From a virus (Duplodnaviria; Caudoviricetes): a DNA stretch of 64,000 nucleotides. The position numbers and the translations under genes were made by a program. Every line of letters starts with the position of its first letter. Position 1 is the first letter of the stretch. This document shows, piece by piece, positions 2,652 through 57,519 of the stretch. Below the pieces are notes generated by a model. That model had not been told where the DNA came from. It saw nothing but the letters and a program-made list of their open reading frames with translations, and did no database searches. The stretch spans positions 1 to 64,000 of the IMG/VR virus record IMGVR_UViG_3300032219_002227. One strand, given 5' to 3'.

Positions 2652-4502
2652 ATGGATGTAACGCAAAGTATTCTTAGCGAGATTACTACTTATATGAAGT
2701 ACGCTAAGTTTAGACCTGAATTGAGTAGAAGAGAAACATGGGAAGAACTAGTTACTCGAAATAAAGAAATGCATCAAGCTAAATTTCCACAATTAAAAGA
2801 TGAAATCGAAGAAACATATAAACTGGTATACGATAAAAAAGTATTGCCGTCAATGCGTAGCCTGCAATTCGCTGGTAAGCCCATTGAGCTTAATAATGCT
2901 CGTATATTTAATTGCTCTTTTCTTCCTCTTGATGACTGGCGTGCGTTCAGTGAAATAATGTTCTTACTACTTTCAGGTTGTGGAGTAGGATATAGTGTGC
3001 AAAAACATCATATTGAAAGTCTTCCTGAAATTAAAATACCAACTAAACACAAAAGATATTTAGTAGGTGATAGTATTGAAGGTTGGGCAGATGCTGTTAG
3101 AATGCTTTGTAAAGCATATTTTACAGGGGCTGCATTGCCTTTATTTGATTTTAGAGATATTAGAGCTAAAGGGGCTCAGTTAATTACTGTAGGTGGTAAA
3201 GCACCTGGTCCTGAACCACTAAAAGAATGTTTGTTTAATCTCCAAAAGGTATTTGAACGTAAGAAAAATGGAGATAAATTAACATCAGTAGAAGCTCATG
3301 ATATGGCCTGTCATATAGCAGATGCTGTATTATCAGGTGGTATTAGAAGAGCAGCACTTATTTCATTATTCAATCTTGATGATGAAGATATGTTAACGTG
3401 TAAGTTTGGTAATTGGTGGGAAGAAAACCCACAACGTGGTCGTGCTAATAATTCTGCCGTTGTATTACGTCATAAGATCACTGAAGAAGAATTCTTCAAA
3501 TTATGGAAAAAAATTGAATTAAGCGGCAGTGGTGAACCCGGTATTTACTTTAGCAATGACAAAGATTGGGGAACAAACCCATGTTGTGAGATTGCTTTAC
3601 GTTCTTTCCAATTCTGTAACTTATGTGAGGTAAACGTTTCAAATGTTGAGTCACAAGAAGACCTAAACGAACGTGTTAAAGCAGGAGCATTTATCGGTAC
3701 GCTACAAGCAGCATACACTAATTTCCATTATCTAAGAGATGTATGGCAGAAAACAACTGAAAAAGACGCTCTATTAGGTGTTGGAATGACAGGTATTGGA
3801 TCAGGAGCTATTTTAAAATATGATTTGAAAAAAGCAGCTGATTTAGCTAAAGAAGAAAACGCTCGTGTTGCCGAAGTAATTGGAGTTAATAAAGCAGCTC
3901 GCGTAACAACAGTTAAACCATCAGGTACTAGCTCATTAGTATTAGGTACATCATCTGGTATTCACGCTTGGCATAATGATTATTACATTCGCAGAATTAG
4001 AGTAGGTAAAAACGAAGCAATCTATAATTATCTTGCAGTTAATCATCCTGAATTAGTTGAAGATGATTTCTTCAAACCAACAATTCAAGCTGTAATTTCA
4101 GTACCACAAGTAGCACCAGAAGGTTCTATTTTAAGAACTGAAAACGTAATTGATATGCTTGAGCGTACTAAATTATTCAATCTTGAATGGGTAAGAAAAG
4201 GTCATCGTAAAGGAGCTAACACAAATAACGTATCAGCTACAGTGTCAATTCAAGAAAATGAATGGGAACAAGTAGGCAATTGGATGTGGGAAAATAGAGA
4301 AACATTTAACGGATTATCAGTATTGCCTTATTTTGGAGGTAGCTATACTCAAGCACCATTTGAAGATATTACTAAAGAACAATTTGAAGAAATGGCTCAA
4401 CACCTTCACTCGATTGATCTATCTAAGATAGTAGAATTTAGTGATGATACTGCTTTAATGGATCAAGCAGCGTGTGCTGGTGGTGCCTGTGAAATAGTAT
4501 AA
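2652..4502 (+). CDS. nrdJ: Class II (adenosylcobalamin-dependent) ribonucleotide reductase
   Basis: FNCSF, GTNPCCEI, TTVKPSGT, C-terminal CAGGAC redox pair; no beta-subunit gene nearby. Confidence 0.9.
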   Translation: MDVTQSILSEITTYMKYAKFRPELSRRETWEELVTRNKEMHQAKFPQLKDEIEETYKLVYDKKVLPSMRSLQFAGKPIELNNARIFNCSFLPLDDWRAFSEIMFLLLSGCGVGYSVQKHHIESLPEIKIPTKHKRYLVGDSIEGWADAVRMLCKAYFTGAALPLFDFRDIRAKGAQLITVGGKAPGPEPLKECLFNLQKVFERKKNGDKLTSVEAHDMACHIADAVLSGGIRRAALISLFNLDDEDMLTCKFGNWWEENPQRGRANNSAVVLRHKITEEEFFKLWKKIELSGSGEPGIYFSNDKDWGTNPCCEIALRSFQFCNLCEVNVSNVESQEDLNERVKAGAFIGTLQAAYTNFHYLRDVWQKTTEKDALLGVGMTGIGSGAILKYDLKKAADLAKEENARVAEVIGVNKAARVTTVKPSGTSSLVLGTSSGIHAWHNDYYIRRIRVGKNEAIYNYLAVNHPELVEDDFFKPTIQAVISVPQVAPEGSILRTENVIDMLERTKLFNLEWVRKGHRKGANTNNVSATVSIQENEWEQVGNWMWENRETFNGLSVLPYFGGSYTQAPFEDITKEQFEEMAQHLHSIDLSKIVEFSDDTALMDQAACAGGACEIV

Positions 4503-4513
4503 TACTTACATCT

Positions 4514-4900
4514 ATGATAAAGCTAATAGACTTATTAAAAGAAAATAATGATTTATCTCAAACAAAAATATTAGATGATAATGGTAATCCTTTAATTGTC
4601 TATCGCTCTCAAGAAGATGAAAGAAATCAAGGAATAGAAAGACAATCAGGGCATAGAGGAATTTACTTCTCAGCTAATAAAGAATCAACAAAGATATATG
4701 GTCCAATAACAAAAGAATATCATTTGAATATTAAAAATCCACTAATTCTAAAGGATACTGAATGGAATTTATCAGTATTACCTTCAAATTATTATGATTA
4801 TTTAATTAAACAAGGATACGATGGTGCTGTTTGGATTAGAAAAGGAGAAATGTATGAAATAATTGCTTTTTATCCTGAACAAGTAATTTCTGTGAAATAA
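4514..4900 (+). CDS. ADP-ribosyltransferase-fold protein (ART-PolyVal-like)
   Basis: DDNGNPLIVYR, GIYFS, LNIKNPL, GYDG, YEIIAFYPEQ pattern. Confidence 0.6.
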   Translation: MIKLIDLLKENNDLSQTKILDDNGNPLIVYRSQEDERNQGIERQSGHRGIYFSANKESTKIYGPITKEYHLNIKNPLILKDTEWNLSVLPSNYYDYLIKQGYDGAVWIRKGEMYEIIAFYPEQVISVK

Positions 4901-55111: not shown

Positions 55112-55201
55112 AATAAATTGTTTTTAGTTAAAAATAATTAGATCACATATAAATATTAAGAAAAATTAGGAGAATGCAAAAAAATATAATATATTTAAAA
55201 T

Positions 55202-55399
55202 ATGATATTAACAATATATATTATTTCGGTTATTTACTGTGTATACAAGATGTATACTTTATATAGAAAAAACAATAACCCCTTATATTCATCTCCAGGG
55301 TTAGACACTTTAGCTATTATAGTTATGGCTCCGGTACTAATGGCTGTAGATGTATCTATGACTTGGATTAGATTGTATAAAGAAAGAAAACAACAGTAA
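55202..55399 (+). CDS. Small membrane protein
   Basis: Two hydrophobic stretches; promoter-like element at 55166-55197. Confidence 0.7.
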   Translation: MILTIYIISVIYCVYKMYTLYRKNNNPLYSSPGLDTLAIIVMAPVLMAVDVSMTWIRLYKERKQQ

Positions 55400-55400
55400 T

Positions 55401-55559
55401 TGTCAGGTGGTGAAAAGTGTGCACACACTGGTATACACACCCACTCGTCTCGTGGGCGCTGAAAACGAAACAGGTATTTAGGTATGGGTTGACCACAAAG
55501 CCGGCTTAATTTGCCAAATACTAAATCGCAGCGTGAAGGTTCGACTCCTTCCCTGACAG
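55401..55559 (+). ncRNA. tRNA-like RNA with expanded D-loop, non-canonical anticodon loop and 78-nt variable arm
   Basis: Acceptor TGTCAGG/CCTGACA; T-arm GAAGG-TTCGACT-CCTTC; stem CCCAC-TCGTCTC-GTGGG. Confidence 0.8.
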
Positions 55560-55561
55560 CC

Positions 55562-55800
55562 TGAACACAGTGAAGTCTAAAAAATTAGTCCGCAGGCCAC
55601 GGGATCGAAAACTCAGGAATGCCTCTTAACAATGCACAAATCTCCTCTAAATCGTTAGTTAGCGGTGTAAAGTAACTCCACTGGAGAATAGAGTTACAAA
55701 TAAGGTTGATTGGGATAGGGTTGCAGGGTAATGCCTGACCTGATAGGATAGTAACGCCAATCATAAAAGCAGATGTCCACGCACCCATCTTCTGCTTTCC
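55562..55800 (+). ncRNA. Putative structured ncRNA of unknown class
   Basis: GC-rich, no convincing ORF; stems GTAACTC/GAGTTAC, TGATTGG/CCAATCA, AAAGCAG/CTGCTTT. Confidence 0.5.
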
Positions 55801-55805
55801 TAAAT

Positions 55806-55892
55806 GCCCTTGTGGTGGAATAGGTAGACACGCAGGACTTAAAATCCTGTTCGCTGAAAAAGCGAGTGCGGGTTCGATTCCCGCTGGGGGCA
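55806..55892 (+). tRNA. tRNA-Leu (anticodon TAA), CCA not encoded
   Basis: CAGGA-CTTAAAA-TCCTG anticodon arm, long variable arm, GCGGG-TTCGATT-CCCGC. Confidence 0.95.
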
Positions 55893-55893
55893 C

Positions 55894-56215: not shown

Positions 56216-56539
56216 ATGGCATGTCATTATTTAAATTTAAAAAATGCAGACGAATTCTACATGAAAATGAGGAATAGAGACGCTGACATTATTTTAAAAA
56301 TGGCTAAATGTGTATTAAGTGCATTTAAAAGAGGTAAAGATCAAATTGATATATTTGATATTACCTTCAAAAATATGGATCAACTTACATTTACTATTGA
56401 TAAATCTCAATATAAAGAGTTACTTAGTAATTGTATGAAGGATTTAATTGAAATGGAGGAATATGAATTGTGTGCTGAAATAAAGAAGATTTTGGAGGGT
56501 AAGAAAAGAAGTCGTAAATTAAAAGATAAAGTTCTTTAA
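56216..56539 (+). CDS. Protein with C-terminal UVR-like motif (paralogue of 53031..53330)
   Basis: LIEMEEYELCAEIKKIL. Confidence 0.65.
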   Translation: MACHYLNLKNADEFYMKMRNRDADIILKMAKCVLSAFKRGKDQIDIFDITFKNMDQLTFTIDKSQYKELLSNCMKDLIEMEEYELCAEIKKILEGKKRSRKLKDKVL

Positions 56540-56544
56540 CATAT

Positions 56545-56929
56545 GGGGATAACCGGTATCGATCCGGATGTAGAGGTAATACTACATGCAGGCATTTGAG
56601 TATACTGCCTTAGAAGATACTAAACAATAAACGCTGAAGAATTATCTTCATTCACTTTCGAAGATGCAATGTCTTTCGTTGGTGCTGATTACGCAGTAGC
56701 TGCCTAATCAAACACGGGTAAGTAACCTAGGAACAGAACTACTTTGAGTATTCACGATCGACTCATTAAATAAGGACTGTGGATTAGTTTCTTGATGTCA
56801 TAAATCAAGTGGTGGAAACGACCATAACGGTCAGCCCTACTGATCAGATTCGTTCAGATCTAAGCATGTGAGACGTTAGTATTATTGTCTCTTTCGGAGA
56901 CGTGGGTTCGAATCCCACTATCTCCACCA
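56545..56929 (+). ncRNA. ssrA: tmRNA
   Basis: GGGGATA/TATCTCC-ACCA acceptor with G3.U70; GTGGG-TTCGAAT-CCCAC T-arm; tag frame 56633-56707 AEELSSFTFEDAMSFVGADYAVAA*. Confidence 0.95.
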
Positions 56930-56946
56930 AAACAAAATGTGGCCGA

Positions 56947-57223
56947 ATAAATTCTTGAGAGGGATTAAGGCACTGGCTAGATAGCTGAAAAGCTATTGAG
57001 TTGGGTTTCACAGACAGATGAGTTAAAACCACCAACATTAAGGGTAGAATGCGCAACCCGAAAGTGCTCTGGATACGCCGAAGATAAATCATGACGATCT
57101 CCGCAGGCGTTGTTAGTAATCAATCTAACTAGTCTTAACACTTAGACTGATCATCTTTGTGGACTATGGGTGAAAAGGGGTCTGTCCAAGGATTATGGGT
57201 AATCGTTACTCCCATCAATTTAT
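56947..57223 (+). ncRNA. Putative ~277-nt structured ncRNA of unknown class
   Basis: GC-rich multi-hairpin region closed by ATAAATT/AATTTAT, between tmRNA and a terminator. Confidence 0.6.
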
Positions 57224-57253
57224 AGGCAACCAGAAATGGTTGCCTTTTTTTTT
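57224..57253 (+). terminator. Intrinsic terminator
   Basis: AGGCAACCA-GAAA-TGGTTGCCT plus T-run. Confidence 0.92.
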
Positions 57254-57303
57254 ATTTTGGGCAAAATATTTTATTATATTTAAATAAATAAATTAATTAA
57301 ATT

Positions 57304-57519
57304 ATGAAAAAGATTATGGTAATTGCTGCTAGTATGTTTTTGGCCTCTTGCGGCGGGTCATCTGAAAGTCCAGTATCTACTGATTCAACTGTAGTAGATT
57401 CTATTACAGTTTTAATTGATTCAGTAGCAGTAGCTGATTCATCTGTTGGAGCTGCTCAAGGTAACGGTGACATTACAGGAGGAAGTGGTCAATCTCCTCA
57501 TGGAGTGCCTGTAAAATAA
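57304..57519 (+). CDS. Small lipoprotein
   Basis: MKK, hydrophobic core, LASC lipobox; S/T/D-rich body. Confidence 0.8.
   Translation: MKKIMVIAASMFLASCGGSSESPVSTDSTVVDSITVLIDSVAVADSSVGAAQGNGDITGGSGQSPHGVPVK

Follow-up and report, generated by a model that had tools for sequence, protein, structure and literature searches.

The window analysed here is a stretch of 64,000 nucleotides (nt), positions 1 to 64,000 of IMG/VR record IMGVR_UViG_3300032219_002227, a phage genome of 173,246 bp with direct terminal repeats. In this window a transfer-messenger RNA (tmRNA) gene is followed, 5 nt past its end, by an RNA element of about 285 nt and then by a terminator. An earlier note, made from the letters of the DNA, had proposed an unassigned structured RNA between tmRNA and terminator, transcribed together with the tmRNA and released by its 3' processing. 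Taking the comparative evidence together, we consider the best explanation, at a probability of about 0.58, to be a stable, trans-acting and highly structured RNA of a phage-only family, which would represent a distant and enlarged branch of the manA RNA superfamily. The features at the locus are the following.

56545-56929, + strand: tmRNA gene (ARAGORN; Rfam RF00023, 69.1 bits), the upstream neighbour in a probable common transcription unit
56935-57221, + strand: the structured RNA, about 285 nt from P1 to P1' (320 bits with model R1 over 56935-57226)
57224-57254, + strand: intrinsic terminator, a 9-bp stem (57224-57245) and then a T run; similar hairpins are found in the closest relatives

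The stretch is indeed GC-rich and non-coding, as previously noted. Over the roughly 290 nt between tmRNA and terminator the G+C content is 0.42-0.44 compared with 0.24-0.33 in the flanks, and no + strand open reading frame (ORF) of at least 33 amino acids (aa) is present. A protein-coding element was rejected, as the largest + strand ORF has 32 aa and the substitutions are compensatory, while conservation and covariation exclude a mere spacer.

Relatives and distribution of the family

The phage that carries the element encodes a family-B DNA polymerase (PolB), a DnaB-type helicase, a ribonucleotide reductase and a chaperonin. Its PolB is nearest to that of Microcystis phage Mel-JY01 (35% identity), followed by those of T4-like cyanophages (Synechococcus myoviruses; about 30%), and the phage is a divergent T4-like virus. 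First relatives of the element were identified by an exact scan with the tmRNA 3' end, which recovered the same downstream element at 75-92% identity. The joint pattern of two invariant blocks, used to gather relatives from viral and metagenome contigs, matched 38 viral-contig loci and 88 metagenome-contig loci. Removal of duplicates leaves 92 distinct sequences, which show 61-96% identity to the window and fall into four deep clades. With R1, a covariance model built from the family, untruncated members reach 217-320 bits, and 0.9 Mb of other phage DNA yielded no false positives.

Two different patterns had 0 matches in 185,579 bacterial and archaeal species genomes (one genome per species), and by these searches the family appears to be restricted to phages. 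Exactly one copy is present in each of 5 phage genomes of 120-173 kb. A blastn search of 56500-57300 against 50,697 phage records gave no match. The nearest cultured relative by PolB, Mel-JY01, is without the motif and without a manA match, and Synechococcus phage Syn9 has no manA match either. Intermediates between manA and the element family were also sought among 100 fetched phage loci, none of which scored between 217 bits and noise.

One 6.8-kb metagenome contig, L310, contains two near-identical copies (367-656 and 4343-4632, + strand) about 4 kb apart, with a tmRNA less than 100 nt upstream of at least the second. The second copy may have arisen by genuine duplication, or the assembly may have repeated a circular or terminally redundant end.

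A fold of ten covarying helices

The folding energy of the single sequence is not better than that of shuffled sequences (z = -0.45 on the + strand, -1.05 on the - strand). The case for structure, although strong, is purely comparative; judged from the alignment, a real structured RNA is close to certain. RNAalifold on 26 sequences and our own G-test with average product correction (APC) on 92 sequences yielded the same helices, and the alignment of the 92 sequences (A4) was scored against shuffled and slid controls. In A4, 93.1% of cells are paired as opposed to 78.1 ± 0.3% in shuffled alignments, with 0 of 500 shuffles reaching the observed value, and the slid controls are only 33-46% paired. 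Changes on both sides are seen in 56 of 78 pairs, and compensatory cells number 1,088 compared with 343 after shuffling. The + strand is fixed by invariant or common G-U pairs, for example the UG that all 92 members have at the end of P4. The overall architecture consists of ten helices plus loop-loop pairings.

56935-56938 with 57218-57221, +: P1, AAAT/ATTT, weak here; a covarying helix of 8-13 bp in tRNA-array clades (flank duplexes, 92 members)
56942-44 with 56969-71, +: P2, preceded by unpaired GUG and containing the invariant internal loop GAAUAA / UAA; 100% paired
56950-54 with 56962-66, +: P2a hairpin, loop TTGAGAG 56955-61; 99.6% paired, with double changes in 8 of 8 pairs of P2 and P2a
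56974-57003, +: P3, a long hairpin with GAAA tetraloop 56987-90; compensatory changes in 9 of 11 pairs
57013-57019 with 57180-57186, +: P4, which closes the large central domain; 96.9% paired, double changes in 6 of 7 pairs
57020-57030, +: GAGTTAAA, the 5' strand of the invariant internal loop followed by P5 (ACC); columns invariant in the 92-sequence alignment
57028-30 with 57169-71, +: P5
57032-57072, +: P6, a three-part hairpin whose tip differs between clades
57075-79 with 57106-10, +: P7, with a 26-nt loop; 98.9% paired
57112-57129, +: P8 hairpin with a conserved 8-nt loop (TA..CAA.); 100% paired
57130-57166, +: P9 hairpin, 7-nt loop 57147-53 with self-complementary TGATCA 57148-53
57168-57186, +: GGGTGAAAAGGGG, the P5 3' strand, the 3' strand of the internal loop and then the P4 3' strand; invariant in 92/92
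57195-57215, +: P10 hairpin, preceded by a short tail, 11-nt loop 57200-10; 100% paired

A first register for P1 was dropped, as it was only 62% paired in the alignment, and this helix was rescored sequence by sequence. The internal loop between P4 and P5 is invariant in 92 of 92 sequences, with GAGUUAAA on one strand and GAAAAGGG on the other. By our own reading of the letters, the strand 57020-57030 may hold a T-loop-like pentamer, either AG..A or UU.AA. A canonical 11-nt receptor for GAAA tetraloops was also looked for; its UAUGG is present, but the strands are not partners and are not conserved.

The covariation in the 92-sequence alignment and the strand-fixing G-U pairs thus bear out the earlier proposal of a structured non-coding RNA on the + strand, for which covariation had been demanded. 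Its individual helices fared less evenly, about half being right and about half wrong. TAGCT-GAAA-AGCTA is the tip of P3, ACGCC/GGCGT is P7, ATGGG/CCCAT is P10 and GGGT/ACCC is the tip of P6, all of them backed by covariation. The other four are displaced by alternatives that covary. The suggested pairing of the ends, ATAAATT with AATTTAT, has to be given up: ATAAATT (56947-53) belongs to the P2 internal loop and P2a, and it is AAAT at 56935-38 that pairs with the 3' end. In the same way, GTTGG...CCAAC comes apart into GTTGG, which closes P3, and CCA, which opens P6; the letters of TGGAC...GTCCA are part of P9 and P4; and of the inner AGAT/ATCT pairing, ATCT pairs with the P2a loop instead.

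Pairings between loops

Two covarying loop-loop pairings meet in the loop of P7. Its positions 57098-57101 pair with 56957-60 of the P2a loop at 100% (G-C 71, A-U 20), and one clade has changed three of these pairs together (AAUCA/UGAUU). The directly adjoining positions 57094-97 pair with 57203-06 of the P10 loop at 91% (U-A 74, C-G 17), again with compensatory changes. A further contact, PK3, between 57008-09 and 57191-92 is weak and 82% paired.

The P9 loop is a perfect 6-nt palindrome in 85 of the 92 members. Two of the deep clades have UGAUCA at this place and the remaining two UAGCUA, versions that differ by two compensatory swaps of inner pairs. Because the palindrome fills 6 nt of a 7-nt loop, it cannot pair with itself inside one hairpin, and no other segment that covaries with it was found. 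A pairing of the P9 loop with the P7 loop in one molecule was rejected, since it fails in the UAGCUA clades. The P8 loop UCAAU and AUUGA at 56995-99 are complementary in the window, and this candidate was rejected as well because there is no covariation.

A single long-range pair, 56948 with 57202, also covaries (U-A, C-G, A-U; 96% standard pairs). One partner lies in the GAAUAA loop of P2 and the other is the first variable letter in the loop of P10, beside the P7/P10 loop pairing; this could be an intramolecular tertiary pair or part of an intermolecular contact.

Relation to manA RNA

At Rfam gathering scores only tmRNA and tRNA are found in the window, and the element matches no family. 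When the element is searched alone, a single family appears, manA RNA (RF01745), over 56938-57217 with 20.1 bits and E = 0.003. Six diverse relatives, all that were tested, match RF01745 at 23.5-33.4 bits, always on the element, where the cut-off is 55.2; a search at whole-genome scale has no RF01745 match in the phage. As a positive control, the manA RNA of Prochlorococcus phage P-SSM2, which lies between regA and purL, scores 181.6 bits with RF01745. In the reciprocal direction R1 finds the P-SSM2 manA at 14.4 bits, the sole match outside the family below E = 0.01. In view of these consistent and reciprocal matches below the gathering score, the label 'unassigned' used earlier goes too far; a known-family match, which had been named as an argument against the proposal, has in this sense been half found.

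manA RNA has been described in T4-like cyanophages, marine metagenomes and Photobacterium (RF01745; PMC2864571). It was rated a riboswitch candidate by Weinberg et al. in 2010, with most copies in 5' untranslated regions (UTRs) (PMC2864571). No more than this was known of manA (PMC9964418) before a preprint of July 2026 (10.64898/2026.07.01.735769).

The element and manA have several features in common. Both show the closing helix P1, followed by GUG and then P2 with the GAAUAA / UAA loop and an inner hairpin; this 5' module aligns to the manA consensus at high posterior probability, and the manA of P-SSM2 has it as well. They also share a hairpin capped by a GNRA loop (GAAA 56987-90 in the element), a terminal hairpin with an 11-nt UA.U... 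loop, a CUG(A)/(U)CAG pairing between the loop of an internal hairpin and the last loop, and T4-like aquatic phages as carriers. They differ in size, the element having about 285 nt and manA about 190 nt, and above all in their centres. In the element, roughly 210 nt are taken up by a domain of five helices (P5-P9), which P4 closes and which includes the invariant internal loop GAGUUAAA / GUGAAAAGGG as well as the palindromic loop; this is not the centre of manA. The manA core, in which a P4 helix with a GUGGUG-loop hairpin, a GNRA hairpin and a third hairpin is followed by P8, is not found in the element, and R1 aligns the manA centre in a register unlike the Rfam structure. The two RNAs are also placed differently, the element in operons of transfer RNA (tRNA) or tmRNA genes and manA in 5' UTRs.

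We regard a true evolutionary link between the two as likely. Given its score, its centre and its position, the element would be an enlarged, distant relative of manA and not a member of RF01745; it stands for an uncatalogued family whose RNAs exceed manA in size and differ from it in placement.

A relative in our set, contig L209, has a second and smaller manA-like RNA of about 140 nt (L209:1728-1868, + strand), with a GUG / GAAUAA / UAA 5' module and 23.5 bits to RF01745. It fills the gap between tRNA-Met and tRNA-Leu in the tRNA array that also contains the large element (L209:1336-1645). One tRNA array can thus accommodate manA-type RNAs of both sizes.

Operon context and presence in RNA libraries

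Within 1.5 kb of the element, the 127 loci together contain 309 tRNA or tmRNA genes in the element's own orientation and 1 in the other. A tRNA ends at most 30 nt upstream in 34 of these loci and starts at most 30 nt downstream in 46; a tmRNA is found at most 300 nt upstream in 29 and further off in 9. In some clades (e.g. L092, L051, L036, L021) the element sits between tRNAs. An obligatory link to tmRNA was rejected, as there are tRNA-array clades without tmRNA, including two genomes that are 98-99% complete. What the element is tied to is thus the tRNA-type operon and not tmRNA itself.

The spacing between tmRNA and element varies. It is about 190 nt in one relative (L007:4455-4645, + strand, between the tmRNA end at 4454 and the element at 4646) compared with 5 nt in the window, and 360-375 nt in several other loci. 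These long spacers can hold another insert, possibly another RNA.

The RNA is also present in public RNA libraries. Words of the stretch are shared by 24 public runs, and four metatranscriptomes from four studies (freshwater and river) were examined. Short contigs from these libraries cover the tmRNA and, at several-fold higher summed depth, the element over about 56956-57201. Summed contig depth over the element reaches up to about 2000, 1200 and 680, the value of about 2000 being found over 56997-57201, and none of the contigs reach past 57215, the end of P10. No contigs cover the flanking coding sequence (56300-56504, 57243-57500), which does not prove it silent, as the flanks of relatives would not map. 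One contig, nearly identical, runs across 56860-56997 from the 3' end of the tmRNA into the element, in agreement with the co-transcription proposed earlier.

The placement among tRNA and tmRNA genes suggests that the enzymes which trim these would also release the element, and we infer that it is likely set free as a discrete RNA by end processing of the tRNA type. Of the previously suggested release by tmRNA 3' processing, the general route thus fits, with tRNAs at most 30 nt away, on one side or on both, in relatives; the specific tie to tmRNA does not, as the element occurs without it.

Proposed self-assembly and competing explanations

What could such an RNA do? Cryo-electron microscopy has shown manA RNA to form octamers, decamers and a 60-subunit shell built from pentamers (10.64898/2026.07.01.735769). 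Its subunits are held by the intermolecular kissing loops L5-L7', L8-L9' and L3-L8' and by a GNRA-receptor contact (10.64898/2026.07.01.735769). By a count of helices along the Rfam consensus, manA L3 would correspond to the P2a loop described here and manA L9 to the 11-nt loop of P10. In the RF01745 consensus, aCUg of L8 stands opposite cAg of L9, which is the same pairing as P7 CUGA with P10 UCAG. This equivalence would make the covarying loops of the element counterparts of the loops that hold manA subunits together. Because its loops match manA kissing loops and the self-complementarity of P9 has survived a double swap, we favour, at somewhat better than even odds, the reading that the element self-assembles into a homo-oligomer.

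In this mechanism the element would be transcribed within a tRNA-type operon, in other clades inside tRNA arrays, and excised by the nucleases that trim the 3' end of the neighbouring tmRNA or tRNA, with ribonuclease P (RNase P) acting at a downstream tRNA. Its ten helices form two multi-helix junctions, and the invariant P4-P5 internal loop would be the folded core. Subunits might then join head to tail through the P2a, P7 and P10 loops, and by two-fold contacts through the P9 loop. For the role in the infected cell our best guess is an RNA scaffold or compartment.

Other ornate RNAs without assigned function, namely manA cages (10.64898/2026.07.01.735769) and ROOL, GOLLD and OLE (PMC12286853), offer a comparison. 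With the self-assembling RNAs the element shares covarying loop-loop pairs and a self-complementary loop fit for symmetric contacts. ROOL and GOLLD are two to three times longer, and their models (RF03087, RF01998) have no match on the element. An analogy of context only is provided by species 1 and 2 of phage T4 (rnaC, rnaD), stable non-tRNA RNAs that are encoded in the T4 tRNA cluster and released with the tRNAs. Like the element they are non-tRNA RNAs in a phage tRNA cluster, yet at about 120-140 nt they are far smaller.

Several observations weigh against the self-assembly of a manA-like RNA. Neither the window (20.1 bits) nor any of the six relatives reaches the manA gathering score of 55.2 bits, and the centre of about 210 nt does not align to manA, RF01745 skipping 146 nt as an insertion; the relation could thus be one of a shared module and not of common descent of the whole RNA. 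The loop numbers of the preprint were mapped to the Rfam consensus by helix count, the only check being that L6 is the GNRA loop. The manA cages themselves were obtained with RNA that had been refolded in vitro, and their source is a preprint (10.64898/2026.07.01.735769), with no biological role known for manA either. Covariation cannot separate intramolecular pseudoknots from intermolecular kissing loops, although the P9 palindrome does allow such a distinction. Of the 92 members 7 have no 6-nt palindrome, and the change from one palindrome to the other may have happened only once in evolution. Taken singly, the sequence folds no more stably than shuffled ones (z = -0.45). Lastly, the RNA evidence comes from assembled contigs, mostly of relatives, which show presence and not ends, strand or level.

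The ambiguity of covariation leads directly to one alternative, in which the RNA stays a monomer with intramolecular pseudoknots and binds protein, for instance to sequester an RNA-binding enzyme or defence nuclease of the host as a decoy or sponge. The pairings of the P2a, P7 and P10 loops are sterically plausible in one molecule, since P2a and P10 flank P1, and strong sequence invariance in single-stranded regions is characteristic of catalytic or protein-contacting sites. The tRNA regions of phages are commonly seen as a counter to defences directed at tRNAs, which would suit such a function. Yet this leaves unexplained why the self-complementarity of P9 is kept via compensatory change, the homologous manA loops are intermolecular, and no conserved protein gene accompanies the element, its neighbours being tRNAs or tmRNA depending on the clade. 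On balance we consider a protein-binding monomer unlikely.

A second alternative starts from the P4-P5 internal loop. Its 3' strand contains GGGUGAAAAGG, which matches exactly the consensus of bacterial class A RNase P (RF00010) over the end of P12, J12/13 and the start of P13, and which lies next to a CC/GG helix end as in RNase P. T-loop modules have the cores AG..A (T-loop 1) and UG..A (T-loop 2) (PMC3664808). The three known double T-loop modules all bind the tRNA elbow, and further ones have been predicted (PMC4810234). In the element UGAAA (57171-75) is invariant and fits UG..A, and AGUUA (57021-25) fits AG..A, with A1 and G2 invariant and the fifth letter being A in only about 85%. GGGUGAAAAGG, the CC/GG helix end and a putative AG..A pentamer on the opposite strand are what the element has in common with the J11/12-J12/13 module of the RNase P specificity domain. 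The RNA might accordingly bind tRNA or tmRNA, as a chaperone, sponge or decoy for tRNAs of phage or host, a function that could coexist with oligomerisation. The invariance of both internal-loop strands in the 92 sequences and the constant position of the gene among tRNA or tmRNA genes speak for it. Against it, about 15% of members have another letter than A at 57025 and the conserved G2 is missing from the alternative register UU.AA, RNase P models fail to match the element even at E = 10, the likeness was noticed after the fact, and borrowed tRNA-processing machinery explains the tRNA neighbourhood equally well. This too, attractive as it is, appears improbable to us, to about the same degree as the monomer. 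Less probable still would be a combination of tRNA binding with the favoured self-assembly, namely an RNA-only oligomer or cage whose subunits show an RNase P-like double T-loop platform and capture or organise tRNAs, or the tRNA-like domain of tmRNA, by their elbows; we regard it as a long shot. If true, it would mean an RNA compartment for tRNA handling in infection, encoded where the tRNAs are encoded.

The riboswitch rating of manA, made for its 5'-UTR position (PMC2864571), raises the idea that the element acts in cis on the terminator at 57224-57245 and the lipoprotein-like gene at 57304-57519, which do follow it in this window. In the family as a whole, a tRNA comes next within 30 nt in 46 of 127 loci, a tRNA or tmRNA lies at most 30 nt upstream in 46, and the downstream genes are not conserved. 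Moreover, the terminator stem is outside the conserved fold, which leaves no alternative pairing, and the RNA is abundant as a short species in RNA libraries. Cis regulation is thus very doubtful.

A reduced or divergent RNase P RNA that processes phage tRNAs has scarcely any probability left: the tRNA-array position, a size near that of minimal RNase P RNAs, the J12/13-like motif and, by our own reading, a P1-P2-P3-P4 junction that resembles the RNase P P7-P10 cruciform are outweighed by the missing catalytic domain and P4 and by searches which, as the earlier note had stated for RNase P signatures, came out negative for RF00010 in the whole phage genome, for all RNase P families on the element at E up to 10, for CR-I (GAGGAAAGUCC; no site with at most 3 mismatches) and for CR-V (ACAGAA..CGGCUUA; no meaningful site with 3-4 mismatches allowed), which refutes it as a claim of membership.

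Significance

manA has been a riboswitch candidate since 2010, and the sole experimental result on it is the cages formed in vitro. The branch described here is larger than manA, abundant in the freshwater and river RNA libraries examined, and never located in a 5' UTR. Because the element sits in tRNA/tmRNA operons, where tRNA-like excision is to be expected, its context favours free-standing, processed RNAs for the manA superfamily and weakens the riboswitch reading.

With about 285 nt, covarying loop contacts and a palindromic loop, the element is also a subject for structural biology, and it raises a concrete question: does the invariant RNase P-like motif touch tRNA? With one copy per genome it would be an easily scored marker for a group of uncultured T4-like phages.

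The surrounding transcription unit

On the + strand of the window the order is tRNA-Leu (55806-55893), two small ORFs, tmRNA, element and terminator. Promoter-like sites upstream are found only near 55194-55224. A single transcription unit probably starts there and includes a GC-rich non-coding stretch, tRNA-Leu, the two small ORFs, tmRNA and the element, with the terminator at its end.

The tag encoded by the tmRNA (56545-56929, + strand) is unusually long, with 24 residues, AEELSSFTFEDAMSFVGADYAVAA, and ends in YAVAA; that of the relative L209 is only ANEYAVAA. The first gene past the terminator (57304-57519, + strand) encodes a 71-aa protein beginning with MKKIMVIAASMFLASCGG, which by eye resembles a lipoprotein signal peptide with a lipobox cysteine.

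The GC-rich non-coding stretch upstream of tRNA-Leu (55300-55806; 0.40-0.48 G+C) has no + strand ORF longer than 30 aa. Within it, positions 55615-55646 (+ strand) give a sub-threshold match to the abiF RNA motif (RF03085; 30.5 bits against a cut-off of 37, E = 0.0017). The wcaG, manA and abiF RNAs of cyanophage S-CREM1 are no more than about 800 bp apart (PMC9964418), and because of this clustering a similar group of small RNAs may exist near the tRNA-Leu of the present phage.

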